Positions 20,501 through 54,599 of a stretch of DNA of 64,000 bases are shown piece after piece. This DNA is from Amoebophrya sp. A120. Its lineage: Eukaryota; Protista; Dinoflagellata. Position numbers and translations under genes: made by a program. Below the pieces are notes generated by a model. The model was given only the letters and a program-made list of their open reading frames with translations. It ran no database searches and was not told where the DNA came from. Where the stretch lies: assembly GCA_905178155.1 (NCBI GenBank), contig CAJINV010000002.1:10272146-10336145 (forward strand), in the 5' to 3' direction. The first letter of the stretch is position 1; every line of letters begins with the position of its first letter.

Positions 20501-21981
20501 GGCAGAAGTACTCGTAGTTTGTTCCACCGCCTTTGTAGTTGCACTAGTAGTGCCAGCTGCTGTTGTCGCACCAGCACTGGTCGTGTTCTTGCCCGGAACT
20601 ACTACTGCAGCCGCAGGGGCTCCTGCTGTGGCGGCAGGAGAGGGGGTAGCAGCAGCCAAGGTGACGTCCTCGTTGCTTTGTTCAAGAACGCCATGATCTT
20701 TCGAAGTGCTCGCGTTGGTCTCCGGAGCGGAAATCGTGCGCGCAGCGGGTTCGTCCGCAGTTTCATCTTTTTCCCCTACGTAATCCAGCTCCGCCGTGCG
20801 GCTCTGCTGGATGGTGGTCTTGATGCGGTTTGCCGCAAACGTCGCGGTGACTTTCTTCTCATCCGCCTGCTGCTCGTTCTCTTGCATCGCAGGGGCCAGA
20901 ACCAGCTCCGGGTGATCACCGCTTTCTATTGTGGTCTGCTCCTCGAGTTCTTTACTTTGCGGAGCAGAAGCGGCAGCGCTTTCTCCGGGAAGATGTTGAA
21001 TCGACGTCGAGGTCTGCTCTGCGGTAGTTGTACTTGGAATGCAAGATGTTGAACCACCACGGCCACCTCGTCCCGCATCACTTGCACAAGTGCTGCGGGA
21101 TCTCTCCTCCGTTGATGTCATAGGAGAAGCAACCGCCGCGACGTTTATCCTGAGTAAAAACGTCCCCACACCAGAGTTGTCATGCAGATTTGCAATGACA
21201 GGAACATTTGTAATGCGCATCGCCAGGAGAGGCATTTTTAGTCGTGTTTTGGAATTTGTAATGCTGTAAACAGGATGAGTAGATGGATTTCTGATGCAGC
21301 TGGCCTTGCGAACCTGCACTACACTACGGACTGCAACTACTTGTGATGCGTGACCCCCAAAAGTTCTAGGTTTGTGTTGCAAAATCCCCATCTTGACTCT
21401 GGTGTGGGGATGTTTTTACTCAGGATAACGTTGGTCATTTCGTTGTTCAGCTGGCTGCTGTTCTGCAGCAGGCCAAAGGGGCTCGAGGGAGTGATCGTGG
21501 ACCCGGACTTGTTTTCGATCCCCGTCGACGCGGTGGTGGGGCAGTCATCACTGGTGAAGAACTTTTTCGACGGCGGTGGCGTATCGGAGGTTGGCGAGGA
21601 GGTTTTGTGCAGGACAAAACTCTCCGCCGAATTGGAGGAGGTGAGCGTCTTCAGCGTGGAGATAGAAGAATCCGTGTTGCACTTGGAATGCACCTCCAGA
21701 GGCACGGCCGTGCTCGCCTCCAGGGAATCCTCGCACCCACTGCCAGCAGTTGCCAACGCCTTACTATTTGGTGCTCTGCCGTTGAGGCTGCTGTCAGCTT
21801 GTTGCGACAGCATTTTGATCTTATCTGCTGCGTTATTCTCCATTTTGATATTGACGGTCGGCGACAGCTGCACCGGCTGGTAGGCTTCTGCCGTTTTTTT
21901 TGCGGTCGAATCTACTTGTTCCGCGAAAAGATTCTTGCTTTCCAGCAGTGCTTGTTCTACCACTGGTGTAGGAGATGACAT
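14571..21981 (-). CDS. Pumilio/PUF RNA-binding protein, 5 exons, ~2129 aa, with long low-complexity regions
   Basis: PUF repeats (CGNYVCQKL, YSCRVLQKF, NANHVVQRC, YGCRVLQRL, YGNYVLQYY, FASNILEKL, FGNYIVQKL). Exons 21428-21981, 20322-21140, 18731-20056, 17836-18510 and 14571-17586 sum to 6390 nt. They are separated by two introners and two phase-matched GT-AG introns (18511-18730, 17587-17835). Confidence 0.88.
20062..20321. mobile_element. Introner-like TIR element, family A1 (260 bp), TSD AGTGT
   Basis: AGTGT at 20057-20061 and 20322-20326. TIR TATGGATTGCAAAAATGTCTGGGTCTGGAA / TTCCAGACCCAGACATTTTTGCATTTGATA. Removal gives GSATT|LEQSL in frame. Confidence 0.95.
21146..21427. mobile_element. 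Introner-like TIR element, family B (282 bp), TSD ACGTT
   Basis: ACGTT at 21141-21145 and 21428-21432. 32-bp TIR TATCCTGAGTAAAAACGTCCCCACACCAGAGT with 1 mismatch. Removal gives NEMTNV|AAVASP. Homologous to 41875-42153. Confidence 0.95.
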
Positions 21982-25055: not shown

Positions 25056-28000
25056 CTAGGACCCGAGCTTCGGGACCGCGGGCGGGACAGGGGCTTGGTA
25101 TATCCTTGGAGCGACGTGCGGCCCCTGTTCGCCGGACAGTATGGAGGTGGAGAGGTCGTTCTGCAGCATCCCCGGGGCCTCCCCCGGTTGCTCGGCGGAC
25201 AAGACATTTGGATCTCGGATCTGCCGGTCATTCGACCGACACGAAGCCGTAGACAGGTCGTAGCTGATCGGACCGCTGTGGTTCACCACCGCGTACAATG
25301 AGTCCGGGTGGTTTTCCGGATTGTAGTTGAACATCGCCGCCTATGCATTGCAAATATGTCTGGGTCTGGAAACTTGTGATGCAAGAAAGGGAATAGTGAA
25401 CTCACTATGATGCGTTGCCAAGCATGACAAGTTTTTTTCATGGTTCTGAGTTGCGTACTCCGCATCACAAGCTGCGTTTTTGCATGACAGGGAGGAGGAG
25501 CTCTTCGCGGCCATGCAGCACAGAGTTCAGAGTCATGCCAGACTAGCATGACGAATCTCGCAATCTCCCAGACCCAGACACTTTTGCATTTGATACCGCC
25601 CACTCTCGAATTCGCGCCTGTTCTTGGTCGCCACGCGCCGCCGCCTGCCGCAGACCCCCACGGTCGGCGCTCTGTTCGGAAACGTCGTAGGAGCCGACTC
25701 TGGGAGGTTCCCTATTGTCATTGTATCCATCAAGGCAACGCTGGTAGTAAAAGTAATGCACAACCGCCAGAGCGGCGCTGATTAAAGCGAAACCGGAGAG
25801 ACCCGCCAGGACATGCAGGGCGGTGCTAGTGCCCCCATGACTGCCAAACGACGTCGGACCGGGTGCCGCCCAGCTTTCGTGTGAGTGGTCTACCTCTGGC
25901 ACATGTGACTTCGACGCTGGATCCGTTGAACTTGGATTTGCACGACCCCCGCCTGTCTGATTTTGCTTTTCCCCGAGCGTGCTTGAAGAGGCTGGCAACA
26001 AGAAATTATAAAGATTGTGACTTTGATTCTTTCCCTTTCCTTTTCCTTTTCCCTTTCCTTTTCCCGCCGGCGCCTCTGTTGTTTCACCCCATGGGAGGTT
26101 CCCGCCGTCCGCGCCCCCAGAAGCTGACTCACGACTTCCATTGCTCTGCGCCGTTGTGCTAGTTGTTAAAAAAGGCGGTGGGAAGTCGACACCGCAGGAC
26201 AAACTACCCGTGTGTCTTTCGAAGACAGGGGTATCATAGATGTGCCTGTCCGTCTGTGCCTTGTCTTCGACTGCAAGAAGGTCCTCCACTCCCTTGCCAT
26301 AAAAGCGGATCACGTCCCGGGGAAACGGGCGCAGGAGGCAGTAAGGAACCTCTGCGTCGGCATCCAGTGTGAAGGATCGGCAGCCGCTGGTGATGCGACA
26401 CAGCAGCTCGCAGGCAAAAAAACCCTGGGGGGGCCCCAGTATAGCGTAGGTCTGACTCGCAAGCAAGTGGACGGGCCGCTCTTGTTCATCTCTACTTACC
26501 ACCTGCTCCGCCAGCTGCGATCCTTCTTTCTTCATCTCGGCCAGAAGTCCTTCCCACTGCGCGACCGTTTTATCGTACCTCCACTCGGCCTTGCTCCACC
26601 GCGTCCACATGTTCCTCCACTGCACGGGTACGGCTGCAGGACCCAGCGGGACGATGTGCGAAATCCCCGACAGAAGCTCCTCCCCTTCCCAGGCTTCCCG
26701 CCACGAGGACTTCCGTACCATGTCAAACCGGTAGGCCTCTCCGCGTCGTGCGTCTTCCTCTAAGTTGCACTCCTTCCAGGCGCGCTGGCGGGGCGAACGC
26801 AGCGGACGAGGGTCGTCCTCCGAAAATGCACCATCCGCCGATGGTGCGAAATTCTTTTGCTCCTGCCCGACACGATGATCCGTGTGGCCGTCCTTTCGTT
26901 TCTTATCCGTTTTGCTGCCCTTGCTGATGTCCACCTTGTTGGGGCCATTCTTCTCCTCGCCCTTGTATTCACCAGCGGTAATTATCCAGGTAGTGGCGTC
27001 ACAAGGGAAGCCAACCGCTGTAGTATCCGGCTCCCGGTTGTAGTCACGACCGTCAGGCCTTTTATCATCCCTTAATCCATCGTGCACGACGAGCTCCACT
27101 CTGTCGGGCGGCTTGGAGAACAGCCGGCATCGCCAGCCTTCGTGATGCAAGACAGCCGGCAACTCTGTGTCTCGGATGCTATTTCGCGAACGAAACACCT
27201 CCCAACCGCGGCACGTGGCGGCCGGGATGCCGGGGAGTGAATGTTGATAGCCGGCGGGAAAAAGGGCGCAGGCGAGGGCGCACTTTTGCCGTGCGTGCGA
27301 GGCCGCAGCCTTCCTCCCCTCGTCGCTGGACTCGTTTTTTTGCGGGCACCAGAAATTCTGCCTTCCCATGTAGTTGTAGAGCCACTGCTTTCTCACGTTC
27401 TTTCCAACATCCGCGCCAGCCTGTTCGACCTCGGGAAGCGAATCCAGCAGCTTTGTGAAGTTGCTGGATACTTCCGCACCTTCAAGGTCCACCCAGCCGG
27501 CAGCATTGTCCCGAAATAAATTCACCCCGTCCACGTAGGTGACGACCTTTCCCTGCTTGTGTGCGCAGAGCTTCCGGTCGCTGCGATCTACAAAATCCAC
27601 GAGCCCCTCAGCTTCTCCCGCCGTCGTGCGGGACCCGGAGAGCGGAACCTCCAGCAGCATTACCGCCGGCACGTGTGCACTCTGCATCCCCTCCTCCGTT
27701 CGCGCGGCTTCCCGAAAGCCCGGCAGCTTGTCGTCCGCACCAATCACTTCATATCCGGATCCCGTTTCATACAAACCCGTCGGATAGGTGTCGACCGAGC
27801 AGCTACGCGGGGCAACAGAACCTTCTAGCACCTCATGTTCCATAGCATAGCTGGCAAAAGCATTCTCCCTCTCCACGTCTATGGAAATTCCGTCTCGGAC
27901 CTGCGGATACAGTAGCAGCCCGTTTCTTTTCCTCGGGTACTCCGGGTCACTCTCATCGCCCGTGAATTTACAACACAAGCACATGACATTTTTTTCGTTT

Positions 28001-37380: not shown

Positions 37381-40024
37381 TCATTGAAACAAAGTGAGCA
37401 TCTTTCTTTTTTCCTCGGACATTTGTTTCAGAGGGAGACAACAGAAGTCTTCCATCCTAAACCGAAAAACATTGTGGGGATAAAAATACGACTGATCTTC
37501 TCTTTTATCATTCACCGCGTTTTTCTCGCTCGCCAAAGACATATCTGCGGTTGCGGTGCAAGAAGTACCACTACCTGTGGCCGCACCAGTCCCCGCAGCA
37601 GCATTTGTTACCTCGGGTTTTTGTTTTTCCACAACTTTCGTGTACTCCCCCACTTCGGGCCTCTCCACGGTTTTGTAAAAGCCATTAATCGCCATCTCCG
37701 GAATACTCTTCTCCTTGCACCGCGCCCGCACGACGTTAAAGTGGACCGCGTACTCTCTCGGAACATCGAAATGAATGACGGAGCAAGTTACGGTGACGAA
37801 GTTACTAGTGCTCTTCTGCTCGTCCCCTTCTTGCTTGGACCGGAATGACGCGATCAGGTCGTAATAGTCTTTTCTGGTTTTCACATCCCGGTTGGTGTTG
37901 TCCACCAAGCAGTTTTTCTTCTCTTCAAACAACCCCTTCTTGCTATCAAAAGGAAAAATGCCCCCTCCCCATATCGAAACGAAGTTTCTGATGCTGGATT
38001 TTCGTACACAGATCGGATGCGTCTTGCAGTAGAGGACTGGAGGCATATGCCAAGCCGGAGCCGAGGGGTTTTGACGTAGGCGCCTAACATGACAAATGTC
38101 TATGCTGTAAGCCGAGCAGCATCACAGACCGCCTGTATAATGTGGCGGACTCTCTGGGCTTGCCCTCTTGCAAGACAGACAGGATTCGTGGTCACAAACC
38201 TGCATCGCAAATTTTGAGAGGGATGCGCTTTCAATATGGGGACGGGGGATTTTTCCTTACAATACTTGCACCGCGCCACACACGCGTCGCGCGACTTTAG
38301 CGTCTCCTGGTTCACGTAGATCCACGCCTTGCTGTCCGGGTTGCTCTCCTGGTCGAAAAAGAGCTGCTCAGCCAGCGTGGATTTCCCGGACCCGGGGGAA
38401 CCGACCAGGAGAACCAGGTGGAGGTTTGTACTAGAAGTGTTTCTGCTGTCATCGTTGCTGTTGTTCACCCCTACTTGTTCTTCAGAAGTGGCTGCACGAG
38501 CAGGACGGCCCAAAATCTGCTCTGTCACTTGCTTTCGAAACGAGCCTGCTTTTGTTCTCGTCGTGTTTTGCTCGTTTTGCTCAACTTCTCCTTGATGCGG
38601 GTCGTGTTCCGGCGATTCTCCCTGCTCCTGCTCTCGACTGCTCGCGTTTTTGAGCTGCGTCACCGATGGCACGAAGAATTTCCGCGGATCGAACCCCCCG
38701 AAGGAGTAGAACTTCTCGTCCTTTTCCTGCAGAAACCACTTCTCCGGGCTGTAGAACGTCCAACCCAGGTTCAGCGCAAACTTGTAGTCGGAACTGGAAA
38801 AGTCCTTCTTCGCAATTCCGGCCCGCTCCGGCCGGCCCGCGGCGTCGCCGACGTAGAAGGAAGTGCGCGTGTCAATCTCGAAGTTTGGATTTCTTTTCTT
38901 CATCTCTTGCACCACAAACTCGTACCCACCGGTGCCCGGCTTCCGGCAGTAGTTCTCCCCCAGTGCGGCGATGATGACGACTCGGTCCCTCGTTTTCTCG
39001 TCCAATTTCGACAAAATTTGCTCGCATTTCCACTTCCAGTCGTTCAACCTTAGTTCCTGCTGTTTCCGGTTGTTTTTGTGCAGCGAAAGCCCGTTTTGAT
39101 TTGTGAAAATCCAGATTTGAGTTGTAAAAGTAGATGAACTCGTGTTGGGTGGATTCGAATCTGATTTTACTTCGCAAACCAGCTCATTCAACCGCTTCAC
39201 CACCATATTATTCGGATATAACCACTGCCAGTCGTGCTTATCCTTGGGAAAAACCTTGTATAAGCTGCTCAGGTGTTACAATCTCAAACGTTACAATAGA
39301 ATCTGGAATTTGTGTTGCAAGAAGCGCATTATCTAGCTTACTCCCATAGGATTGCGCATGACAAGTTCTGGAGTCCCAATCCGCACTACAATCTGGCGAA
39401 ATTTGTATTGCAGAAAGTGGAATGCTGTCCGAGTCTGTCATGCTCATCATGCAATACAAAACCCAGACTCTATTGTAACATTTGAGATTGTAACGTTTGA
39501 GCGGGTCATACCTTGCCGGATGAAGTTTTGATCAAAGTGTTGTCCAGGTCGAAGGCGGCCACTCGAAGGCGGTTCTTATTTTGCTTGTTTACATTTGCCT
39601 CCACTGGTTGCCCGTATGCAACGACTGGGTCGTTGATGTTTTCAGGCAAGTGTTCTAGCGTTTTCGCCCCAAAGTAAATGTGCAGAGAATCGTGGTAAAA
39701 CGACTTCCACAACTGCGGTGACGGATTGGTCGAGGACGCAGACGTGGCTTTTCCCGCGATTATGTTGTTGCCCCCGCCAATAGTTCCCGGCATCCCGAAG
39801 ATACGGACAGGCTTTTTCGTGGGTGGGTGGGGGCCGCCAACGGCGGTATGTTGAGTCGTGCCATTTGTTCCGGGAGCATTTTGTTCCGCAGCTGGTCGCT
39901 TCAAGGAAGATGTCGAGCTGGCAGAAGCGCCTGCAACTGCTTCCTGTGGATCCTGTTGCGGCGGAACTGCTGCTTCCTTCGATGGCATGCCTTCTTTATT
40001 TTCGGTCACCCTTTCTTGATGCAT
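37381..40024 (-). CDS. PNKP: Bifunctional polynucleotide 3'-phosphatase/5'-kinase (~686 aa; start codon uncertain)
   Basis: AAFDLDNTLIKTSSGK|VFPKDKHDW, IFTNQNG, RKPGTG, FYVGDAAGR, KDFSSSDYKFALNLG, P-loop GSPGSGKST, VDNTNRDVKTR. Two introners split these motifs; exons 39511-40024, 38265-39253 and 37381-37938 total 2061 nt. Confidence 0.93.
37944..38264. mobile_element. Introner-like TIR element, family C (321 bp), TSD CTTGC
   Basis: CTTGC at 37939-37943 and 38265-38269. Removal gives CVARCK|KGLFEEKKNCLVDNTN. Confidence 0.95.
39259..39510. mobile_element. Introner-like TIR element, family D (252 bp), TSD CCTTG
   Basis: CCTTG at 39254-39258 and 39511-39515. ~48-bp imperfect TIR containing GTTACAATCTCAAA(C/T)GTTACAATAGA. 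Removal restores the conserved SGKVFPKD motif. Confidence 0.95.
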
Positions 40025-40665: not shown

Positions 40666-42729
40666 TCATCTAAAGTTCGTTAACCCGAAAGTTCCGCCCC
40701 AGCTCCCGTTCATTGCGCGATTGTCGTTGACGCCGCCACTCCCCGAGACGCGGCCGGCGGCCACACCGATTAGATTCGCATACTTTATCTCACCTGAAGC
40801 GTCTTCCCACTGCCAGCGCAGGTTCTCGTGTTCCGTAAAATACTTTATTGGGATGCCCCGCTTCTGGATCTTGGTGGATACTGAGGCTGTGCTTGTTTTC
40901 GTCGTAGTACAATTCTGCGACAAGCCTTTCGACCCGGCCCCAGGCTGTTGAAGATCATTGCTGGAGACAGGATCTTTAATTTTTGAGCTAGAGGATGACT
41001 GTTCTACTCCGACAGGACCGCCATCGCTGTTCGATACTCCCTCCATCATGCCGCTGCTATCGAGCAACGGATCGACGGCCGGGCTTTCTTCTGCGGTGGC
41101 GTCAGCCGTGCTTTGCAACGACATGGTGCTTTTCATCAAGTCTCGATTTGCGCTCTTCAAGTTTTTGTTACTCTCCTCCGGCGGCGTCGGGGGTGCGGCG
41201 GTCGATTTCGTCTCCAGCCCGGCGTGCGTCAGCGGGTTTGTTTTCGAAATTTCGTTGATCGTAGCGGCACTCACCACGTTGTTGGTGGGCAACGTTATTG
41301 TGTTCAGTGGCGCAAGCGTCACTTTGTTCGATTTGCTATTTTTCAGCTGCGCGGCGTTTTCCTCAAGCATTTCGACGAAAGCGGGCGACCAGGTCGGTTT
41401 CGGCTCGACGAATTCGCCCGGGGCGATCGACTCCGTATTGTCGAGGGGGACTTTCTTCAGGTATGGAAGCAGAAAACACGTGTGCGCGTCACTACGAATC
41501 ATCTCGTCGGCAAGTTTCCTGTTTTGATGTGGGGGGATGGAGCATCATGTGATAAGCACAGAGGATCTTCAGATTTGTATTTTCATCTGCTGGATCAGGA
41601 TTTCTTCTGCTGCAACTTTTGCTCCTTCACGAAAGGGCCACTTACTGAAAGAGGTCCTGGAGGCGACAAATCGGTATTGCATGCGAATCAAAGGTGCGGA
41701 ACCACTTGTCCTCGGGCATCGTATCAAGTTGTAAGTAGCCTACTTTGTTCTTTTCGTTTGATCATTTCATTGAGGAACCAATAAGACGTATAATACCGGA
41801 ACTTCCTTTCCCGGATCGCGGTCCTCCTGCCCTGGGCGTCGGGCGACAGCTTGGGGTCGTCAAGCTCGAAAAGGTATCCTGGGTAAAAACGTACCCACAC
41901 CAGAGTTGTAATGCAGGTTTGCAATGACAGGACCATTTGTAATGCGCATCCGCATGAGAGCCATTTCCAATCGTGTTTTGAAATTTGTAATGCTGTAAAC
42001 AGGATGAGTAGATGGATTTCTGACGCAGGTGGCCTTGCGAACCTGCACTACACTGCAGAGTGCAACTTGTCATGCGTGACTCACAAAAATCCTATGTTTG
42101 TGCTGCAAAATCCCCATCCTGACTCTGGTGTGGGTACGTTTTTACCGAGGATAAAAGGTCAATTTGAGACATCTCGTCCCGCTGCAAGAACGAGGAGAAA
42201 TCGGAGCCCATACTGACGTATGAATTGCAAAAATGTCTGGGTCTAGAAGATTCCAAACTTGTAATGCTGTCTCTGGATTCTAAAAAAATGTGTATTGCAT
42301 GACCAGCAAGAGCACTCCACTTAGTGCTACGCGAAGAGGGCATTTCTCATGCGGTAGAGGCATCGCAAACTCCTCTAAAAATATGTGATGCTAGGGCATG
42401 CATCACAGACATCATGGGCCATACAAAATATGCATGACAAACCTCCACTAGGGCCGTGCATACAAAATAAACATGTCGATCGATTGTGCCACTAGGGCCT
42501 TGTGTTCCGGCTATTCCGGATCGCAATCGATGGAGGGCGGGACCTGCACCGGCGACAGGCGCTACCCAACCAACCAACCAACCAAACCTGGCAATCTTCC
42601 AGACCCAGACACTTTTACATTTGATATGACGTCTTTGTCCGAAGGATCCGCAGCACCGCCCGCGCACCACTTCGCGCAGGATCGGGACGTTTGGTTCTGA
42701 AAGGCAAAATGCTCGCGATCCGGGACCAT
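40666..42729 (-). CDS. Hypothetical multi-exon protein interrupted by two introners
   Basis: MVPDREHFAFQN...DKDV|SMGSDF...SQIDL|FELDDPKLSPD reads through once both elements are removed. A GT-AG intron at ~41519-41645 leads into ORF 40666..41502. One junction near 41740-41800 is unresolved. Confidence 0.55.
41875..42153. mobile_element. Introner-like TIR element, family B (279 bp), TSD AAAGG
   Basis: AAAGG at 41870-41874 and 42154-42158; TIR TATCCT(G/C)GGTAAAAACGTACCCACACCAGAGT. Confidence 0.95.
42219..42626. mobile_element. Introner-like TIR element, family A1 (408 bp including a nested insertion), TSD TGACG
   Basis: TGACG at 42214-42218 and 42627-42631; family A TIRs; 263 bp without the nested insert. 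Confidence 0.93.
42445..42582 (+). mobile_element. SINE-like retroposed insert (138 bp) with (CCAA)n tail and 7-bp TSD CAAACCT
   Basis: CAAACCT at 42438-42444 and 42583-42589; (CCAA)5 at 42566-42585. Removing it restores the family A1 length. Confidence 0.7.
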
Positions 42730-45333
42730 CCACTTTTTTTTCGTTGCTTACTGCAGAAAGGACAAAGAACGAGCAATCTATCTAGATGTAGTTGCCGATG
42801 GTTACTACCAAGCTGTACTTATCCGAAGGATCAAAAATGCACGGCTCCGGTATTTTGGCGAGCGGCCTTCTTTTTTGCTTTTCTAACTTCTACCGAAAAG
42901 AATATGAAAAAAATGTCGCTTGCCTTTCTAACGAACTGAAAATTTCATTTTGCACATAACATTGTTGTAGTCACTATGAAAAGTAAGTTCTTGTCAACTA
43001 GCAGCGATGCTGAAAAGCTTCCTCCGTGCGCGCACGCCGCTTGTTCTCACAGACAGGCTCTTGAAAAGGATCTGTTTCTGTTTGGCGAGTTGAGAAGCGC
43101 AAGAACTATAAACGCCACAATGACTAAGTCTTTAGATCCTTGTTGGTTGTCCGTGACAATGCCGGGGAACTTCGTCCTCCGCACGAACAAAACTCGTCCT
43201 CCGCGCACGATGGTTCCTGGAGGCGACGCCTTCAAAAGTAGGACCACTTTCGCCTACGAGTCCTTTCGTCACAGGTAGTAGTATATTATTTTTCGATGCT
43301 GCAGTGGCTGAGAGTTTAGGTTTAGGTGTTTTTTCTGAAATAGGTAAAAATTTTCAAATACAGAAGTACAATCGATATAATTGGAGTTTTGTCTCTGTTT
43401 AACAAATTGTGCCGTCAATACTTTTTTAAAACTTTGCTTTTTTGTCAGATTGTGATTCAAGAGAGCTTTTTTTTCTTGTGCTTCCGTAGCCGAAATTCTT
43501 GTTTCTGCCTTTTATTGCAGCACAAACAAAAATCTGTTGAGCTACTTCGTTGTAATTCCGAATATCAGTTGTAACATACGTAAGAAAACGACGGCAGCAG
43601 CCTTCCGGTTCCGCCATGCAAAAGCACTACCACCGCCCTACACTCTAGTGTTTGACTATACAAAAGTTTTATCTGTAACAATCAACAATCGGTAAACCTA
43701 TCTGATAGAATTAAACTGAATAGAATCTCAAACTTCAAACAATGCCAGCCTTCCGGCATTACTGATTTTTGATGATAAATCTTCTTACTCGAATAAGATG
43801 TTCCTAAGTTTTTTTTCTGAGACCAACAAAATTCGGCCGCACTTCCTTCTAAAGTGCGACTCAGCACCCCGTTGCTGGGCAACTAGATAAGATCTATGAA
43901 TTGGTTCCACCACATCGTGCTCCAGAAGGGAAGCAGAGTAGGTGCCGCTTGAAATTATTGCATACGCTCCGCTGCGAAAAGCTTGGTGATTCCGGCCCCC
44001 GAGCCAAATCAACATCAGTATAAAGTATCACGCAGGAGTACTTCCTTATTGTCTTCAAACGAAAACGCGTCGTCGACCTCGCTGCGCTACTATTGACCTC
44101 CCGTCGTAAATCAATAAATCAGTAGCTCGAAACTACTCAATTTTCGTGCTAGGCACAAGGGTAACAATACTAGAGCTTATTATATCTTTTTTTGCTCGCC
44201 ACAGATTCAGTTCAGAATGCAAATATTATTACCGCCGGGTGCGAGATAATTATCAGCATCTTGGATGATAAAAAACGCACAACGAATGCTACAGGAAAGA
44301 ATAAACCGCCTCCGCCTCCTTGCGGTCGTTGATACATAAGATCTAGGAAGAAAAATGTTCATCGCAATCGAAGCGAGGTGAAGATAGCACCCTCGAATCA
44401 TACTGCTTTGAGTCTGTCTCTGTTTTTTGCAAACTTGGTGATCGTCCCAATCGGGTCTACTTGCTGCCATAAGAATCTGTAATTACACCAGGTCTGGCAC
44501 CTTCCTAAAACCACTACCGTCCATCTTCGCTGTAGCACGGGCGACCAGACCCGATAATTCCAAAGTCAGTTCAGAATTTGTGACGCTATTGTCCTTTCTC
44601 CAGGCGTTCGGCGTTGTACCTCATCGTGGAGGATAAGGAAATGTCCATCGTGCCTGCTCTGACTATGAAGTATAATTTCACCTGTTCTAATTTTGCTGTT
44701 GTGACTCCGAAATATTTTGTTACATCGACTTCTTCACTTCTCATGTTCATCTTTGAATATCTGCGTACGTAGCTATGAGTAGAGGAAACTGTATCTTTAT
44801 CTCTGATCTGCCGTGTAGTAGTTGCGGTGTGGCTTTTAAGAAATATGTTGCCTTTATACCAAATACATTTTTCGTCCACGCCAATTCAAATACAGAGCTC
44901 AGTAGGAAACCATACTTGTACAAATTTCATGGTCGTGTGTAGAAGAAGTTCTTGTTGGCCAGCTTCCCAGAAACGTAGCACAGTCGCAGAACGACTATAC
45001 TGCGCCTCTGCGGACCTGTCCAATAGAGCCGGTGTCCGTAGAGGATTCAGGTTGTCGCAAGCAACTGCAAACTTCAGAGAGGTTGTCACTCCGCCGCTCT
45101 ACTAGAAGCCTCTTTTTGTTTACATCTTTTTTTTTCTTTCGTTTGATAACAAAGTAACATCTTCTACCATCATCCTCTACTTCTTTGTTTGTCCGACATA
45201 CCAGGCACAGAAGACCGTGATCATCCAGCCGAGGATCATCAACAACCACGGGCTGCGCAGGGTAAGCTGCTGGTTAGCGATCACGAGAGAGCTGTTTTGC
45301 CAGCCGATCAGGACGTTTCCACTGTTCGAAGTA

Positions 45334-46923
45334 CTAGAGGACGCGGCATCGGAGGTCGGTGCACCCGAGTCCCCGTTCCCACCGTTCGCTCCAGCCGCAC
45401 CGGAGGGAGCACCGGCAGTCTGTTGATTTGTACCATTTGCAAGTGAGTGAACAGTATTGGTAAAAACAAATTGAACAAACGCCCATGATTTCCATTATTT
45501 CTCTATGATTTATTGATGCAACAAGTTTCCAAGTGACGACCGGACATCGACACAAAAAGTAACTACTTACCCCAATGGCACACTGATCGTTGCCGGAAGA
45601 TGATGCGGCTTGGGCTCCCACCGCTCCAGCCACTTGCGCAGTGGTTCCGTTCCCGGTCACAAGCCCGCCCTTCGTTCCCGGGGCACCAACACTCCCGACC
45701 ATAGACATAGTGCGCACATCGACACTTCCCATCCCGCCACGCTGCAGCACCTGCGGACGGCCGCGCTCTTTTAGGGAGCACCCGCTCCGATACAGGTCCG
45801 GGGGGTGGGCCCAGCCACACTTGTCACCCTTTTCGCACTTTCCGATCTTCCAGAAGTAACACAGAGTTGTCGAGGTGTCCTTCTGCCCTGGCTTCCTGTG
45901 AGTATTCGCACCGCCCGCCATTGGGCACACGATGCCAGGAGTTCCATCGAAATTTGTCGCTTGGGCCGCAGCTCCATTAGTTCCGCTTCCGCCCGCCTGC
46001 TGTGCGGTAGACTGCTCTCCGGAGGAGGTGTTTTCCGGATCGTCCGGCTTCTTTGACGGGCTCCCGGTGACCGGGCCGCTTTTCGGCGTCGGGTTGCCCG
46101 AGTTCCCGCCCGCATCGGCACCCGCGTTAGCAGTGCCCGCAATCGCCGCTCCACCTGCGCTGTTGTCACCAGCAGGGGCTGTAACTGATCCTCCGGGAAC
46201 CGCCCCTTTTCCCTGGTTGTTCATCTTGTCGGTGAGATGGTGTCCACCTTTGTACATCTGCTGACTGTAGGAATTCTGGTACTGGCGGCCCCCCTTGCCG
46301 TAGCCGTAAGCGTTCTGGGCTCCGTACTGGTAGTTTCCGTACGAACCGTGATACCCGCCGTGGTACGAAGAGCCCCCGTACCCACCGTACGCGCCCTGCC
46401 CGTAGCCCGCGCTCGGAACGTTATACGACGAATAGTTCGGCGACGGATGCTGGGCACGCTGCCCGTGCGGCATCTGCTGATGTCCACTCGGCGCGTTTTG
46501 CGGCCGCATCTGCGGACTCGCGCCGGAAGTCGGATTCTGGCTTCCGCCGGTGTTTCCCCACTCGCCGCTCCCATTACGCGAGTTCGGCTCCGAGCCGATC
46601 GCGATGGGGATGTTGCGGTCGTTGATGTTGGGCCGGGCGTGGTAGCCCTCGGGGATCTGGTGCGCCCACTCGCAGTAGGTCCCCTTCACGCAGTTCCCAC
46701 GCCACCAAAAGCGGCACACCATGTTCATCGTGATCCCATTGCCTCGCTGGTGGAAGGACTGCTGCTGCGACGGATGCACCGGCGGCTTGCCGCGGTGCGG
46801 GTACGCCACCCCTCCTGGCGCACCAGCGCTGGCGGACTGCTGGGTGCTGGTGCGCGGCAGAGCTCCTTCCGGGGGCACGTGGGTGGAACTGTGGTGGTTC
46901 GATCGATTTTTGCAGAACAACAA
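45334..46923 (-). CDS. CCCH (C3H1) zinc-finger RNA-binding protein exon; probably part of a larger gene reaching to ~49456
   Basis: CRFWWRGNCVKGTYCEWAH and CYFWKIGKCEKGDKCGWAH, with a G/Y/Q-rich linker. A GTAAGT donor at ~45569 means the ORF ends are not the true exon ends. Confidence 0.8.
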   Translation of the reverse strand: MLFCKNRSNHHSSTHVPPEGALPRTSTQQSASAGAPGGVAYPHRGKPPVHPSQQQSFHQRGNGITMNMVCRFWWRGNCVKGTYCEWAHQIPEGYHARPNINDRNIPIAIGSEPNSRNGSGEWGNTGGSQNPTSGASPQMRPQNAPSGHQQMPHGQRAQHPSPNYSSYNVPSAGYGQGAYGGYGGSSYHGGYHGSYGNYQYGAQNAYGYGKGGRQYQNSYSQQMYKGGHHLTDKMNNQGKGAVPGGSVTAPAGDNSAGGAAIAGTANAGADAGGNSGNPTPKSGPVTGSPSKKPDDPENTSSGEQSTAQQAGGSGTNGAAAQATNFDGTPGIVCPMAGGANTHRKPGQKDTSTTLCYFWKIGKCEKGDKCGWAHPPDLYRSGCSLKERGRPQVLQRGGMGSVDVRTMSMVGSVGAPGTKGGLVTGNGTTAQVAGAVGAQAASSSGNDQCAIGVSSYFLCRCPVVTWKLVASINHREIMEIMGVCSICFYQYCSLTCKWYKSTDCRCSLRCGWSERWERGLGCTDLRCRVL

Positions 46924-47395
46924 AATCGAAGAGCAACAACGCGATCACGCAGGGCGAGTCTTCAAAACGAATACCTACACAACATTGCGAATAATTTCTT
47001 CAAAGTTTGTATCGCCCTCTACTGTACTACTACTAGTACTAGGAAGATATAAGTTTCGCAATTTCTTTACCCATCCGCAAGGTCCTCCAAGCTTCCCAAC
47101 GACCCCGCATTGGTTTCTTCCAGCATCGGCAAGGCCTCCATACACTGCAACTCCTCGAACTTCTGGGTAAAAACCGTGGGTTGATCCAGCGGACTTTCGT
47201 CCAGATTCCGCGAGGCCGGAGTCTGTACAGCGTTTGTTGTACTGGTCTAATAAAAATTTGTTCGAGAATTATAAGTACCCAACGGACAGCACGTTTTCAA
47301 ACAGTTCAACATCCTTCCATGGATCGACATTCAGCATCGTGTTCTTGCTCCAATTATTCCAAAGGAAACACAAAAAAAAACTAGATCATGTTACG

Positions 47396-48301
47396 TTAGT
47401 TTACCTGCTCACTGATGATCTTCATCCATGCCTCTTCCGGGGTTTCCGGGCTCGCCTCACCCTGCGGTTCCTCGAACCCGCAGATGGGCGACACCACGCT
47501 GGTGTCCTCCTGCTCGTGGCCCGTGCTCTTCCGCCCGTGGGCCGTGGTGTCCTCCGACTCCGCCAGAGACTTGTCCAAATTCAGAGCCTGCTGCAAACCC
47601 TCGATCCGTTTAGTAGCGTTGGTGCCCTCTCCTGCTGTCGTCGTGGTGCGCTCGCCGGTGCCCGGCGTCGTGGAGGTACCCTTCTTGTTGGACAGCTGCT
47701 TCTTTTTCTTGTTCGACTGCTCGATGACCATGGCCTCGGCCGGGGTGGGAAACTTGTTAGCGTAGGAGTTCACGCGGGCCGGCGGCGTTTTGGTCCCCGC
47801 CGCGGGTTCTTCGGTAGTCGCATCGTGGTCCCCTCCAGCCGCGGCGCGATAGTACTCAACGGCGTAGTCCTCGGGACTGTCGGCCCGGGGCAGCAGCTGC
47901 GGCAACGTCGTCGACCCGGCGGTTGTTGCGGGCACGGAGTAGCTCCCGTCCGTCGTAGATTTACTGAAGTCATCGTGGCTCTTCGAAGAAATGATACCGC
48001 CGGGGTAGGACGTCGGACTATGCGCAGCTGCTTCGTCGAGAGAAACGTGTTCTAAGTCCTTCTTCTTGCCGCTACCGCTGTAGTCGCCCCCACCGATCAC
48101 CGAGAGGACATCCGGGCTTGCTTGTTCTCCTGTCAGCGCGCCGTCCACTTTCTTCGGCGGCTCCGAAGTAGTGGTGTTGGATTCGCCAGAAGTGGTTCCG
48201 CCGGTAGCGAACTTCGTCCAGTCAAAATCCATGTTTTCTGTTGCGGTTTTCATTTTTATAAAATCACAGTTTCTAGAGGACAAAAAATGAAGAGCGGCCA
48301 C
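47396..48301 (-). CDS. Low-complexity T/S/E-rich exon, probably spliced to the CCCH gene
   Basis: 301-aa ORF ending at a donor-like CAG|GTAAAC. A further open segment at ~47070-47230 ends in GG|GTAAG. Confidence 0.55.
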   Translation of the reverse strand: MAALHFLSSRNCDFIKMKTATENMDFDWTKFATGGTTSGESNTTTSEPPKKVDGALTGEQASPDVLSVIGGGDYSGSGKKKDLEHVSLDEAAAHSPTSYPGGIISSKSHDDFSKSTTDGSYSVPATTAGSTTLPQLLPRADSPEDYAVEYYRAAAGGDHDATTEEPAAGTKTPPARVNSYANKFPTPAEAMVIEQSNKKKKQLSNKKGTSTTPGTGERTTTTAGEGTNATKRIEGLQQALNLDKSLAESEDTTAHGRKSTGHEQEDTSVVSPICGFEEPQGEASPETPEEAWMKIISEQVN

Positions 48302-48365
48302 AGCCGTGTGTAAGATGTTGAAACGGAGAGGAGCAAGAAACGTTCTACCACCTTTTCTTCTACAC

Positions 48366-49456
48366 AGTCACAGCAGGGAAAAAACAAACCAAAACAGAAA
48401 GACAACAAGAAAAACACCACCTCCTCCGTTTTCCTGCGGGCCTGGGTAAAAGTCCTCGTACTGCTCGTGGTCGTAACCGGCGGCCGCCTGCATGTAGTAG
48501 TCCTGCATGTTGGCATATGGCGAGCAAAAAGTGTTTCACTGTAAGGATTTTGGCAGGTTTGCATCACAAGTTCCTTACACATGACAAAGAAAACTTGCCA
48601 TGCGAGATCCCTAAGGGAAAACAGAGCTAACAACTCAATGTCTTGCATGTGTAGCAAGACAAATGCGTCTTTGTTCCATTCTATGCATCACAAGTTTCCA
48701 GTGAAACAGTTTTTTCTCACGATATGGCAGCCGCGGCCCCCGCCGCACCGTACATGTCGGTCGCGTCTGCGCTGTATCAAGTGCAAAAGTGTCTGGGTCT
48801 GGAAGGATGCGAGGTTTGTCATGCGTGTCTGCCATGACTGAAGAGTTTGTGATGCGTGTCCAAGAAGAGACCCTCTTGCTTGTCATGCAAAACGCAGTTT
48901 CTCATGCGGAAAGCGCAACACTAAGCAGCGAAAATGTTTCTCATGCTTGGCTGTGCATTACAGAGAGTTCACTATTAACAACTCAGCATTACAAGTTTCC
49001 AGACCCAGACATATTTGCATTTGATACGCTGTTAAAATTTCCCATATTCGCCATCGCCGCCGCCATATTGGCCATCATGAAGTTCGTCGCCGGATCCGCT
49101 GCGCCCCCGCCCGGCGCCGCTCCCTGCGCCGCGGCGGCGTACATGCTGGCCAGCGCATTCGGGTCCATGGCAGCAGCAGCAGGATTTTGCTGTTGGTGCT
49201 GTTGCGCCGCCGGGTCAAAATAGGAAGGGTGCTGCAGCCAGGAGGAGTGCTGTTGCTGCTGCTGCGCATCGTGGTACCACTGCGCATTCTGGTCCTGCGC
49301 TGCGTAAAACATACCCATTTGCTGTTGAAAACTGTTGCCCTGTTGTTCCTGCTGTGTCTCACCCTTCTGCTGGCCCTGGTGTTCCATCATCTTCTCCTTC
49401 TGGTGCTGACGCTGTTCTTCGGCAGCCGCCGCCGCTGCCATGCCTGTTTGCATCAA
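48366..49456 (-). CDS. Q/A-rich low-complexity coding region split by two introners
   Basis: MMQTGMAAAA...MGNFNS|ADATDMYGAAGAAAA|NMQDYYMQAAAGYDHEQY reads in one frame with uniform composition after both elements are removed. The 3' end is uncertain. Confidence 0.6.
48516..48724. mobile_element. Introner-like TIR element, family E (209 bp), TSD TGGCA
   Basis: TGGCA at 48511-48515 and 48725-48729. Left end TATGGCGAGCAAAAAGTGTTTCACTG versus reverse complement of right end TATCGTGAGAAAAAACTGTTTCACTG. Confidence 0.9.
48775..49026. mobile_element. Introner-like TIR element, family A2, reverse orientation (252 bp), TSD CGCTG
   Basis: CGCTG at 48770-48774 and 49027-49031. The interior is the reverse complement of the 25342 and 51321 copies. 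Confidence 0.95.
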
Positions 49457-50699
49457 AATTCAAACATCATGCACAGTGAAATTGACAAATTTTTTCATTT
49501 CATTTCCATAACGAAAAAAAAAACGTCGCCGCAGATGCAAAACGGTCTGGAGCAACATTCCGCAAATGAGAAAAAGCTTCTAATATAATCACCTCCGTCG
49601 GATGGAATCTCCATCTCTACTTCGCCCTAGTCGCCCGTATTTCTACTTTCTGTCTTTCTAGGATCTCGTCACCGATGTTGTCAAAGATAGATTTCTTGCC
49701 TGCGAACTTGGTTCTCGTCTTGCTTTCACTGCATAATCCAGTACTGTTGCCGATGTTGTCACTGTTGTACCATTGGCCCACTTTCCGTAGCTTGGTGTAT
49801 CAGCTACACGATCGCGGTACCGTCTCCTCGAATGATATCTTGTTTTCTCGTTCCTTTCTAATACTCCGTTACTGATGTTTTCGTGTTGCCGCTATGCAGC
49901 CCTACTTTTCTACCAGTTTGCAACTAATACAATTTGATTTATGCATTGAGCACACGTTGACCTTTTACTCGAATTTTTCATTCTACTTCTAACCTTTGCG
50001 GATTTACTATCAAGCGCACTGAAACATGAAACGCACAACATCTTCAACATCACGCCTGTCAAGAGGATATAAAAACTTTTTCTAAATGAGTCCAAAAATG
50101 ATCTTAGGCCCACTTTGATTTCGATATCTTTTGCCGACGCAGACAGCTTTGACAAAACTTCTTTTCGTGAGGACACAACTATGAGTACACAGGCAACTTA
50201 CTTCTACTTTCGTATTTTTTATTTTTCCGTCGCAGTCCTCATGTACGCATTACGAAAACTCCAGATACTTGCTTCTCTTTCACGCCTTTCACAGTCGTGC
50301 AACCATGATTCAACATCACTTATCAACGGTTTTCGATTTTCAGGAGAAATTACACTGCATAAAGAACGCTTTTTTCCCCTACATCTCGGTGGAACCGGAA
50401 GGTGAACATCTGACACAACACTTCGAGGAGCAGAAGGATGCAATTGAAAGACAACACGGCTCCACCAATAGAACAGACGAATTTAGCGTTTCTTTTATAT
50501 CGATAACCCCCTTAAAACAGTTTCTTCGAACAGGATGAAATTCTGCGGGTTTTTGTGTTTCCTCCCGCCCTCGATATCATCAGCGGTTAGACCTATCATA
50601 TTCGATTAAACTTCTCCTTTGCACATCTGCAATATGGCGGGCGAGGCCTCTTCTCCTAGGTATGCAAACGAACAGCACGGTGCGTCGCATGCAACGTTT

Positions 50700-53600
50700 T
50701 CAAAACACGTCGTCAATCTCCTCATCCAGCGCATCCAGCCCCATGCGCTCCCTTTCCATTGGCTCGTACGCCGACATGAACTTTTCGATCGCACCCCACT
50801 TCCCTCGGTTCCAGCCGTCCTGTTTTCAACGTTGTTTCGCATAGCACCCGAACGATGGCATGAGCATGAAAAAATGGAACTATCATACACTGGCAGCATT
50901 TCACATACCGAACTACTTCGCGTCTCTTTTCCAGCGAAACCACTTGCTTCTATACCTCTGTTTTTGCCATCAGTTTATGGTTGATGATATCCAGCTATCA
51001 AATGTAAAAATGTCTGGGTCTGGAAGATTGCAACTTGTCATGCTAAATCTGCAGCATGCAAAAATCTGTGTTGCATGATTACCAAAAGCCGCCCAATTTT
51101 GACCAAGTCGGGAGGTAGTTTCTCATGCAGGATAGGCATTAGAAAGTTCTCGCAGAATCTGTCATGCTAGCTCCGGCATTCCAGACCTCATGGGTCATGG
51201 AAAAGCAGCATGACAAATCGCGCATTCTTCCAGACCCAGACATTTTTACACTTGATACCAGCTCGACGACGGTCTCGCCGTATCGGTAAAACCCCTTGTT
51301 AATTCGATGAAACGGCACGGTATCAAATGCAAAAATGTCTGGGTCTGGAAACTTGTGATGCTAAAAATGAATGGTATACGAACTGCATTACGCAGCTATG
51401 CATGACAAATTTTTTGGCTCCCATGTCTTACGTATTCCGCATGGTAAACTGCGTTTTTGCATGACAGGTAAGAGGGCCTTTTCGTGCCTATGTAACACAG
51501 ATTCTCAATTCATGCCAGACAAGCATGACAATAAACTTGCATTCTTCCAGACCCAGACATTTTTACAGTTGATACACGGCGGAGCCGGTCGAATTGTAGA
51601 ACTCAGCCAGGCGATTGTCCACTGGATCACGCAAATCCCATGGCGTGTAGGGAACCTTGTTCCACGTCAAAATTATGTTGGGCACAACTGGTGGCAAAAC
51701 TACGCTACGCTGGGCTACTGCAGCGAGGAGCGCGTGATGACTTGTAGCAACAATCTATTCGGACAGCCGAAGGCGGCGCCTGGAGGTGCTTCTATGCAAG
51801 CATCTCTAGTATTATTTGAAAAAAAATCAGTACCGCTGGCCGTGTGCTCGCATAGAGCTGCCGTGTGTGCAAATGATGCTGCCCGCCACCGCGATTCGCG
51901 CTGTTTCGTGACCCGCCGCTCTGTTTGGTGTTTCATACACAATTCCAGTTATTCAGAGCAGCTTGTCGTTTCTGAGCAATGTTTCGCATGCCACGAAAGC
52001 GACAACGACAAATACTTCACTTTTTACGCACAAGAGCAGGGCGTGTCATTTCTACTTCTTACCGTCGCCGAATATCGGCTTGCATTCTGTTCCCCCGGCG
52101 TTCGCACGACGACTCCCGCACCGGCGTCCCTTTCTGCCAGCATCTTGTGTAGTCTGTCGATCTCCCGTGCCTGTTCCTCGTTTTCGGATTGTAATTCTGC
52201 TACCTGCCGCTGCAACTGCTCCACCTGGTTCATCGCCGCAGATTGCTGCCCGACGGAGAGATTGGTCGTGTTTAGAGAGGTAGAGTTGCGCGACACAGGG
52301 CCGGTAGTTTTGTTGGTCAAGACAGACCTGCTGTTTACATTTGTCATTGCTCCTCCGGTGGTGGTACTGTTTCGCGCGGCTGGTTGCGCGAAGTGTGGCC
52401 CCGATCGGGAAGAGGAGGATCTGGAGTTCCGCGATTGGCTGGCTTGTTCCTGGTGCTCTTGCGGATCCCCTTGTGATGCACTGTGTAGGTGTTGCAGTTC
52501 CTCTTGCTGCGATACTTGATGTTCAGTCACACTGTAGTTGCTCCTGGACGACCCCTGATGTCCTTGACTGAAATTGTTCTGCGTATACGCATTTCCATTA
52601 CGTCTCACCAATCCAGCACCTGACATGTTGAAGGTTCCGGCACTTCCACTACTGGGGAAGAACTGCTGCGGTAGTTGCTGTGGTGCGGGAACCCCAACGG
52701 GCCCGGGTGGCGGCAAGCCTCGGATCACATTGTTCCCTGGTGCGGGCCGGTAGAAGTTCCCGACTTTGTTGCTCGCTGCAGAACTGTTGGCTGTTTCGCC
52801 ACCCACCGATTGCTGTGGCAGCACGAACTGGGGCATAGACTGCTGTGGCTGGTACACGGGAACGCCTCCCGGCACGTTTTGCTGCCCGGGGAAAGATATC
52901 AACTGTAAAAATGTCTGGGTCTGGAAGAATGGAAGATTTGTGATGCAGGTTTTCCATCACCCATGAGTTCTGGAATGCGAGACCCAGCATGACAGATTTT
53001 CTGAGGTCTCTATCATCCCTTTCCTGCATGAGAAACTCCCTCTCAACCTGGTCAAAAGCAGACAGCTTTTGGTACTCACGCAACACAGATTTTTGGATCA
53101 TTCAGATTTAGCATTACAAGTTCTAACCTTCCAGACCCAGACATTTTCACATTTGATAAAAGAGAGCATGGGCTGCTGTAGCTGCGTAGGAACAACTCCA
53201 GGTACGACACGACTGGGCACCTTGACACGGAAACACCTCGACAGTGAACTCCCGACGAATTTTGCAAAACCCCTAGTCGATTCTTTGTCGATTCCTTATC
53301 CAAAACGAAAATCGCACGCACGTGCTCCAATGTCTACGCTCACGACTGTTGTCGTGCGCCACACGGCCAGAGAGAAGGCCGGCGACTTGAAACCACACAA
53401 AGCCAGCGCTTTGCTCCAAGTCGCTGGCAGTTTTTGGCGTCCCCTTTCGGTGTCGAACAATTGCACGCCGCGCTGCGGTTCTACTGTATCGAACCGGCTG
53501 CGCGGCTTTTGCACTGTGCGTCATCTTCCGGCTCGAGCCTTGCTTTGTACACTTGTACGAAATGGAGGCCCCGCTCACCCTGCGGCGTGGCGATTTTGCA

Positions 53601-54599
53601 CAATTGTACGAAAAGCGGCGTGGCACGTGGCGTCACATCGCCACCCTGCGGCGTAGCGATTTCGTACATTACCATCGGGGGGATGGCGGCGCCAGCAGGC
53701 GACGACCTAAAGGAGCAAGCCGCTTTTCGTACAATTGTACGAAACAGGGGACAACACTGTCCGCCACTTTCGCAGGCGTGCTTGCATTCTGCGGGCCGCG
53801 GCAGCGCTGCCCGCGCGCCCAGTGTCCGCGCGCGCCCAAGTGCATCCACAGCAGCGGCGCGGAGCCTCTGTCGATTCCTTGTCGATTCCTTGTCGATTCC
53901 TTGTCGATTCTTTGTCGATTCCTTGTCGATTCCTTGTCGATTCCTTGTCGATTCTTTGTCGATTCCTTGTCGATTCCTTGTCGATTTTTTCTCATTTCGT
54001 ACAATTGTACGAAATCAGCAGCTCTGAAAGAAAATGTCACTTTCCTAATTTCGTACAATTGTACGAAATCAATATTTCTAAAAGAAACAGCGAATTTCGT
54101 ACAATTGTACGAAATTGTACGAAATCGACAAAGAATCGACAAAGAATCGACAAGGAATCGACAAGGAATCGACAAAGAATCGACACGGACTCGACAGAGG
54201 TCACCCCGAAACATGGGCGCAACGAGTGGAATCGACAAGGAATCGACAACGACCACCGAGAAGCAAGGCAGCAGAGCCGTCGCATTAGGCACAAACACTT
54301 GTGCTCTATATTCATGACAACGGTGGTCATGCTTCTCGAACTGTTTATTGTATGCGCTACTTGGGTTGTACACGGCAGTGGACCAAGCACGCAGGCAGAA
54401 AACAAGGAAGATATCGGCCAAAATCGACAAGGAATCGACAGAAAATCGACAGAGAATCGACAGCAATTCGACGACTTCAGCTTGTCGAGGTGTTCCGGTG
54501 CCAAGGCTGCTGTAGCTGCGCAGGAACAACTCCAGGTACGACACGACTGGGCACCGAGGCCTGTCGAGTGCTGGTGGACGTCGATGTGGGGAAAAACAT
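50700..54599 (-). CDS. Protein with a low-complexity N-terminus, coiled coil and C-terminal GAR/Gas2-like domain; carries four inserted elements
   Basis: Reconstructed C-terminus DPVDNRLAEFYNSTGSAV|PFHRINKGFYRYGETVVEL|DIINHKLMAKTE|DGWNRGKWGAIEKFMSAYE resembles GAR domains. N-terminus MFFPTSTSTSTRQAS|VPSRVVPGVVPTQLQQPMLSF|PGQQ. GT-AG intron at 50820-50955. The junction between ~51760 and 52060 is unresolved. Confidence 0.65.
50996..51257. mobile_element. Introner-like TIR element, family A1 (262 bp), TSD CCAGC
   Basis: CCAGC at 50991-50995 and 51258-51262; near-perfect family A TIR. Confidence 0.95.
51321..51574. mobile_element. Introner-like TIR element, family A2 (254 bp), TSD CACGG
   Basis: CACGG at 51316-51320 and 51575-51579; family A TIR. 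Confidence 0.95.
52897..53158. mobile_element. Introner-like TIR element, family A1, reverse orientation (262 bp), TSD AAAGA
   Basis: AAAGA at 52892-52896 and 53159-53163. The interior is the reverse complement of the 50996 and 20062 copies. Confidence 0.95.
53222..54504. mobile_element. 1283-bp foldback-like TIR element flanked by a 51-bp direct duplication of exon sequence
   Basis: 53171-53221 equals 54505-54555 with 1 mismatch. Ends TTGACACGGAAACACCTCGACA / TGTCGAGGTGTTCCGGTGCCAA. Contains internal 11-bp arrays and palindromes. Confidence 0.88.
53869..54249. repeat. Opposed 11-bp tandem arrays (GTCGATTCYTT)n and (AATCGACAARG)n around three ATTTCGTACAATTGTACGAAAT palindromes
   Basis: About 11 units at 53869-53987, inverse units at 54123-54184 and 54230-54249. 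Palindromes at 53994, 54048 and 54094, and a 20-bp copy at 53725. Confidence 0.9.

Follow-up and report, generated by a model that had tools for sequence, protein, structure and literature searches.

Introner elements of Amoebophrya sp. A120 lie in both orientations within one gene and are precisely missing from its transcripts

In this study, we examined a 64,000-nucleotide stretch of the genome of Amoebophrya sp. A120, a parasite of marine algae (contig CAJINV010000002.1, positions 10,272,146 to 10,336,145; hereafter the window), in which two minus-strand genes are interrupted by short elements with inverted ends, and we mainly focus on the orientation and removal of four of these elements, which start at 48775, 50996, 51321, and 52897. 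Copies of the same family are inserted in opposite orientations within a single gene, and both are precisely missing from its transcript. The genes and elements are listed in Table 1.

Each of the four focal copies is ~255 nt long, with ~30-nt terminal inverted repeats (hereafter arms), TAT..ATA ends, and exact 5-nt target-site duplications, which are the local sequence at each insertion site. A family-blind scan of the window for an inverted repeat together with a 5-nt direct repeat returned 16 matches, 13 of them starting with TAT and belonging to about six families; ten shuffled windows gave 0-6 matches each, none with a TAT start. The left and right arms of the window elements agree at 24-29 of 30 positions, the exact 5-nt repeat is present in all seven intact A copies of a ten-copy list, and the features of miniature inverted-repeat transposable elements are found together (short, non-coding, inverted repeats, a duplication of fixed length, and many copies). 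The introners described in the text of Farhat et al. 2021 (PMC7789003) have inverted repeats composed of TAT, 7 variable nucleotides, and an A-tract, direct repeats of 3-5 nt, a length of ~240 nt, and 29,850 copies in A120. This published arm design (TAT, 7 variable positions, and at least 3 A) is found in 12 of the 13 window elements, including all four focal copies, the exception being 39259. The best named relative of an Mo25 frame at 55516-56241 comes from Amoebophrya sp. A25 (70% identity, E 3e-82). We regard it as nearly certain that the elements are the Amoebophrya introner elements published by Farhat et al. The first-pass annotation, which was made from the letters of the window, described their anatomy and their removal in both orientations correctly but did not mention this identity; the elements are already known, and the observation itself is correct and extends beyond the window.

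Table 1. Host genes and inverted-repeat elements in the window (nucleotide positions within the window)
Feature	Position	Strand or orientation	Remarks
Host gene 1	43268..50048	minus	RNA-contig extent; 1043-codon frame 49626 to 45180; CCCH/Torus zinc fingers
Host gene 2	50482..53217	minus	RNA-contig extent; 422-codon frame after removal of three GT-AG introns and three elements
A2 element, 252 nt	48775..49026	inverted relative to 25342 and 51321	duplication 48770-48774/49027-49031; coding exon of host gene 1; skipped in X3 and X4
A1 element, 262 nt	50996..51257		duplication 50991-50995/51258-51262; host gene 2; skipped in X3 and X4
A2 element, 254 nt	51321..51574		duplication 51316-51320/51575-51579; host gene 2; skipped in X3 and X4
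A1 element, 262 nt	52897..53158	inverted relative to 50996 and 20062	duplication 52892-52896/53159-53163; host gene 2; skipped in X3 and X4
Family E element, 209 nt	48516..48724		same end design; host gene 1; skipped in X3 and X4
A1 element	20062..20321	as 50996	removal would join two minus-strand frames
A2 element	25342..25595	as 51321	GC..AG register on minus strand
A-type element, 408 nt	42219..42626		no joint among the best 15 of 19 in X3
Family C element	41875..42153		GT..AG register on plus (non-coding) strand only; skipped in X3 (third contig)
Family C element	21146..21427		inverted-repeat scan
Family B element	3303..3623		flanked by minus-strand frames (1643 and 466 codons)
Family B element	37944..38264		inverted-repeat scan
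Family D element	39259..39510		GT..AG register on minus strand; arm positions 11-13 without A-tract

The RNA evidence at this locus consists of assembled contigs from two samples, runs X3 and X4, which were classed as RNA because GT-AG introns are missing from their contigs. In X3, each host gene is represented by one contig; together, the two contigs lack eight CT..AC introns, which are GT-AG when read on the minus strand, as well as the elements at 48516, 48775, 50996, 51321, and 52897. The structures in X4 are identical, and the gaps in its record correspond exactly to small exons (45, 94, and 59 nt). The skipped length equals the element plus one 5-nt copy (257, 267, 259, and 267 nt for the four focal copies), so removal leaves one copy of the direct repeat in both runs, as had been proposed. 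RNA joints were found for six of the seven elements within the covered range in X3 (among the best 15 of 19 joints, which do not include 42219) and for five of five in X4. The reading frame of host gene 1 opens once two elements and four GT-AG introns are taken out, counting also a fifth skip that resembles a GT-AG intron, and according to the frame analysis, keeping any single element breaks or truncates the host frames. A canonical register on the coding strand (GT/GC/GA-AG or AT-AC) is offered by none of the five elements comprising 48516 and the focal copies, nor by 41875, and by two of the 13 overall. Neither retention of one orientation nor use of cryptic canonical sites was therefore seen, both orientations being removed precisely within one gene.

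The eight RNA-supported GT-AG introns (e.g., 45420-45570 and 50820-50955) share the form GTA..ACAG, with A-rich 3′ ends, mostly ACAG, and no pyrimidine tract, and the element arms do not resemble these signals. The 5′ end of host gene 2 probably lies further upstream. Next to this gene, at 53171-54555, a fold-back element of ~1.28 kb has inverted ends as well as 11-nt units in inverted arrays, and a 51-nt direct repeat (one mismatch, 53187) lies on its flanks. Read on the minus strand, the segment 53221-54554 has GT..AG borders; without it, the frame of host gene 2 continues up to an ATG at 54599 (438 codons); judging from the sequence, it is likely a canonical intron born from duplication and insertion.

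The opposite orientation of related copies is evident even when the arms are set aside. With 32 nt trimmed from each end, the A1 copies 50996-51257 and 52897-53158 share 80% identity when one of them is reverse-complemented and 59% when both are read in the same direction, against a background of 58-62% obtained by comparing each copy with its own reverse complement, and a single RNA contig spans both copies in X3 as well as in X4. Similarly, the trimmed A2 copy 48775 matches 51321 at 72% in reverse and 58% in forward orientation and 25342 at 73% and 58%, while 25342 and 51321 are 75% identical in forward orientation. The assignment of the host genes to the minus strand, also claimed earlier, is borne out by the CT..AC introns in the same contigs and by a coding model that calls the minus strand at 13 of 13 sites, 11 of them with a clear margin.

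A wider sample of 149 loci (L001-L149; ~0.48 Mb including overlaps) was drawn from one assembly in a metagenome collection, 15 of 64 parts of which were scanned, with a single exact 20-nt arm motif; viral contigs gave no match. These loci contain 244 different elements that are bordered by an exact 5-nt repeat, compared with none in three shuffles. Copies reach 95% identity to those in the window, with more than 100 full-length matches to 50996, and the exact repeat is present in 110 of 127 A-type copies outside the window. Among 206 strong arm pairs, the repeat measures 5 nt in 147 and 2, 3, or 4 nt in 18, 4, and 2, respectively. The coding model, which was trained on the window and was right in 478 of 481 cases in cross-validation, assigned a strand to 126 of the 244 elements; for copies in this sample, removal is inferred from the restored reading frame and not from RNA. 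Relative to transcription, the 76 family-assigned copies among these 126 divide as 19:17 for A1, 10:13 for A2, 2:5 for B, 7:1 for C, and 2:0 for E, A1 and A2 showing no orientation bias. The gene for RPB1, the largest subunit of RNA polymerase II (locus L072), is interrupted by two A1 copies, which are sense there in the orientation that is antisense at 50996. One copy within the RPB1 coding frame (L072 5014-5985) is 972 nt long, with ~700 nt of extra sequence inside and with arms and repeat intact. As regards a cognate autonomous element with a transposase, six of the 244 elements in the ~0.48 Mb covered span 457-1104 nt, and the longest stop-free frame among them has 238 codons; it belongs to a TAT..ATA element of 1104 nt (L018 505-1608) and looks repetitive.

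The sequence of the junctions is equally unconstrained. All five duplication positions track the composition of the exon background in the 126 stranded copies, the last base being G in 43 of 126 against a background of 30.5%; an excess of G at this position in the window (7/13) disappeared in the larger set and was discarded. A GT-AG register is available to 7 copies in sense and 5 in antisense, and a GH-AG register to 16 and 10. Insertion phase is uneven over the three codon phases (23:52:51), which may stem from a preference for certain targets or from the frame caller itself. Because orientation is unbiased and the duplications are exon-like, removal appears blind to orientation and to splice dinucleotides.

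Symmetry alone nevertheless says little about mechanism. Since the arms are inverted repeats, the transcript has the same first and last ~30 nt whichever way the element is inserted, and any machinery that reads the arms, polar or not, would be orientation-blind. The first-pass annotation had taken symmetric removal as a sign of a non-polar or DNA-level process; both orientations are indeed removed, but this further step does not follow, given the identical ends and the existence of spliceosomal introners that work both ways. The argument against a normal spliceosome lies in the missing splice dinucleotides; more telling than symmetry are the free sequence of at least one junction and the contrast between the arms and the GTA..ACAG signals of the host. 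A modified U2-type spliceosome, in which an arm or the stem replaces U1 and the GT/AG signals and in which both orientations work because the arms are equal, is a possible explanation, though in our judgment clearly short of an even chance. The text of Farhat et al. reports that only 6 of 89 spliceosomal proteins were not found in A120, that U2/U4/U5/U6 are present, and that U1 was not detected, and proposes altered splicing there (PMC7789003); Fritillaria splices transposon-derived non-canonical introns spliceosomally (PMC11282704); introners that are spliced in both orientations exist (10.1101/2020.10.14.339549); and two of the six registers would give the removed segment a constant TA at one end. 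Conversely, at least one junction is then free sequence of exon-like composition, recruitment of sites from the duplication or the element, as in Polarella and Aureococcus, is not seen, and the arms are unlike the host's own intron signals.

The reading that we favor, with chances we would put at about even, is an RNA-level, non-spliceosomal cut-and-join reaction directed by the terminal inverted repeats. The arms would fold into a stem of ~30 bp at whose base the two duplication copies come to lie next to each other, and this stem would be the same in either orientation. A dedicated endonuclease/ligase activity, distinct from the spliceosome that serves the GT-AG introns of the same genes, would recognize the arm through its terminal TAT, A-tract, and inner stem, and would join the exons inside the duplication, as has been suggested for the nonconventional introns of euglenids. 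The elements themselves would spread by DNA transposition through a putative transposase with 5-nt staggered cuts. This cut-and-join is favored over a modified spliceosome because the junction sequence is unconstrained and because the euglenid system offers a precedent. A stem of ~30 bp is predicted on the transcribed strand in both orientations (-129 kcal/mol, z -11, for 50996; -108 kcal/mol, z -6, for 52897).

Several points weigh against this reading. Arm mismatches in the wider sample gave no indication that the transcribed strand is selected to form an RNA stem (G-U 115 versus A-C 102, p 0.42), the lower folding energy belongs to the sense strand in only 7 of the 13 window elements, and a G-U excess on the coding strand that had been noted in the window (15:9) vanished in the wider sample (115:102) and was dropped. 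Arm positions 4 and 7 are paired in only 77 and 59 of 126 copies, which often separates the terminal TAT from the stem. Copies with an altered TAT stand in a coding context in 10 of 19 cases and those with an imperfect duplication in 7 of 17, compared with 49 of 109 for intact copies; as damaged copies are found there as often as intact ones, the data do not show that removal depends on either the TAT or a perfect duplication. The analysis revealed no enzyme, intermediate, circle, or lariat, and the near-complete set of spliceosomal proteins retained in A120, according to the text of PMC7789003, makes a modified spliceosome available. In addition, the synonymous excess among duplication mismatches described below poorly matches a fixed cut. 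An exact 88-nt piece of the interior of 50996, present in X4 at depth 5.9 while intergenic bins are empty, would speak for removal from RNA if it is intron RNA but may derive from an identical copy elsewhere. A role for the stem in removal is thus plausible on the basis of predicted folds, and a protein that reads a two-part arm fits equally. Taken as a whole, the earlier interpretation of the removal is partly supported.

In another run, X9, which like the raw-read runs X10 and X11 gave no coverage of the host genes themselves, ~190 raw RNA reads contain the last 87 nt of an A1 element (aligned at 53072-53158), with four differences and foreign flanks on both sides. The four differences recur in X3 contigs, and the reads possibly represent a one-armed copy kept in a transcript.

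Imperfect repeats also bear on where the join is made. In 51 elements with such repeats, mismatches between the two copies are synonymous in 18/28, 14/19, and 12/16 cases at three thresholds with the first frame caller (p 0.001-0.035) and in 26/50, 24/41, and 24/40 with a more inclusive caller (p 0.01-0.21). A fixed cut discards one copy of each repeat base, which is then free to change, so that at most 41-45% of mismatches should be synonymous, whereas 58-68% are expected if both copies are read. The result is a borderline hint that either repeat copy may be retained at the join, from a small sample and a test devised after the pattern was seen, which conversion from empty alleles could mimic. 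According to Table S5 of Farhat et al., 23% of the apparent RNA-DNA differences in A120 fall no more than 10 nt from intron ends; a mixture of both copies at the join would agree with this figure, which does not demonstrate it. Joining at either copy on the RNA level is, in our view, unlikely.

Two further explanations also rely on the repeat. RNA polymerase might skip the element in the cell, the template folding at the arms and the nascent end re-pairing from the first to the second repeat copy. The arms and the direct repeat would suffice for such a skip, which would be blind to orientation and sequence and is analogous to hairpin-assisted slippage deletion; the tolerance of imperfect repeats in coding context speaks against it, we know of no precedent for near-complete efficiency on 5 nt of homology, and we consider it highly improbable. 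Even more improbable is a jump of reverse transcriptase over the hairpin during library making, with the cell coping otherwise, for example by ribosome hopping between the repeats. A hairpin with a short direct repeat is a known recipe for false introns, a 5-nt repeat always contains one whole codon, and the mismatches lean to third positions; the jump would, however, have to be almost complete in two samples, since in X4 the interior bin of 52897 has a depth of 0.35 compared with 26.4 for its exons, and copies interrupt RPB1.

Messenger RNA alone cannot separate removal from DNA and removal from RNA. Genomic evidence comes from run X1, which was classed as DNA on account of its even coverage of introns and intergenic sequence; the three DNA-like runs (X1, X7, and X8) come from a single sample, which may be the one that the window itself was derived from. 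X1 contigs at single-copy depth (27-29) pass from flank into element at seven junctions, although at six of the seven the overlap is only 23-26 letters, below the 31-letter threshold of the junction tool, which weakens the case for removal from RNA. No empty-site joint was found among the best 15 of 135 DNA joints in these contigs, which are dominated by other copies; as contigs drop rare forms, the X1 result means that the filled site is present, not that the empty site is absent. Head-to-tail arm joints in X1, with 28-39 letters between the arms among the joints listed, are read as adjacent genomic copies.

The life cycle adds a further consideration. According to the text of PMC9478091, the sporont nuclei, from which ~100 dinospores arise, are produced by division of one trophont nucleus, and the earliest stage is transcriptionally quiet. 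Dinospore RNA may consequently have been carried over and is not decisive alone. Because a single nucleus gives rise to all dinospores, excision of DNA in the trophont line would be inherited and would purge the elements; copies 72-89% alike persist in DNA. Excision resembling that of ciliate internal eliminated sequences (IESs) would therefore have to affect templates in the intracellular stage, with repair through the 5-nt repeat and an uncut copy passed to dinospores. The precise return to one repeat copy, the lack of strand or sequence bias, arm mismatches included, and the borderline synonymous excess, as if either copy were kept, are in keeping with such a process. The opposing evidence comprises the X1 contigs, the presence of element sequence in RNA runs, the persistence of the copies, the lack of a described separate somatic nucleus in the text of PMC9478091, and the report by Farhat et al. 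that no transposase was found in A120 (text of PMC7789003). Separate throw-away templates would be needed, and nothing was found for them. We judge this excision to be quite unlikely, and marginally more so the variant in which either copy is joined within the 5-nt repeat on transient edited templates that are transcribed while unedited chromosomes go to the spores. The DNA branch of the earlier hypothesis thus finds no support in the X1 contigs, which represent one DNA sample, or in the life cycle. Removal at the RNA level, of whatever kind, is highly probable.

Other repeats in the window deserve mention. Three identical 991-nt tandem units at 59689-62700 each contain an A-type element (60398, 61389, and 62380) whose right end is rearranged and which lacks the 5-nt repeat, with no long frame nearby; these units are a natural control for the need of both element ends. 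A dispersed motif of ~30-40 nt (57077, 59687, 60678, 61669, 62660, and 63390) borders the units and recurs nearby. A separate 1.6-kb fold-back element at 33469-35096 carries two 59-nt palindromes as an inner pair between inverted ends of 84 nt (93%). Between two elements, a frame at 38100-39275 matches polynucleotide kinase 3′-phosphatase (PF08645), with no link to removal implied.

How some 30,000 introner insertions without GT-AG are removed has been open since 2021, when Farhat et al. suggested a transposon origin and altered splicing without U1 and left the mechanism open (text of PMC7789003). The counts presented here narrow the mechanism to a machinery that ignores orientation and junction sequence, unlike that of Polarella and Aureococcus, and that must read the inverted repeats; copies with one repeat mismatch provide a direct route to map the cut. 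We found no paper on the orientation balance or DNA excision of Amoebophrya introners; in a word search of the main text and supplement of Farhat et al. (PMC7789003), "orientation" refers to genes only and the main text contains neither "strand" nor "excision", with figures S19-S25, possibly relevant to orientation and cut position, outside the search. Relative to that searched text, the orientation balance, the unbiased repeat sequence, and the hint from synonymous mismatches are additions. The elements share with the A120 introners of that text their end design, repeats, length, non-canonical ends, many families, and loss in RNA, and no difference in kind is apparent, the arms being ~30 nt here and 8-20 nt as reported (PMC7789003).

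Like ciliate IESs, the elements are transposon-derived inserts in genes that are precisely removed, leaving one copy of a short repeat. Ciliate IESs depend on a domesticated transposase and on a germline nucleus kept apart from the somatic one, whereas neither is evident here, and the DNA joints listed above held no empty sites. If true, a DNA-level reading with either copy retained would mean that Amoebophrya edits its genome much as ciliates do, but with no separate somatic nucleus. In Fritillaria, where most introns are non-canonical, introns derived from miniature transposons likewise carry inverted repeats and duplications (PMC11282704 and 10.1101/2025.08.15.670264); the splice sites there are encoded by the element, with AG-AC and AG-AT as preferred classes, unlike here. 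The introners of Polarella/Symbiodinium and Aureococcus resemble those of A120 in being transposon-derived, in having target-site duplications, and in that several classes work both ways, but they obtain GT/GC/GA and AG from the duplication or the element and show orientation bias (10.1101/2020.10.14.339549); neither property is seen here, and none of the four focal copies carries canonical sites in the element or the duplication.

The closest likeness to the favored cut-and-join is offered by the nonconventional introns of euglenids (PMC11282704 and PMC6221363), which combine non-canonical ends, inverted repeats that join the ends, and duplication-like repeats with ordinary introns alongside, and which leave as full-length RNA circles (PMC11282704). 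The predicted folds of the Amoebophrya elements likewise bring together an end-joining stem and duplication-like repeats. Euglenid introns have a short CAG/CTG stem motif and pyrimidine-purine junctions, whereas the arms here are long and family-specific and the junction sequence is free, all five duplication positions departing from the euglenid consensus in following exon background. If a separate RNA cut-and-join reaction operates in Amoebophrya, it would be a parallel to the euglenid system and a way to neutralize almost any transposon insertion.

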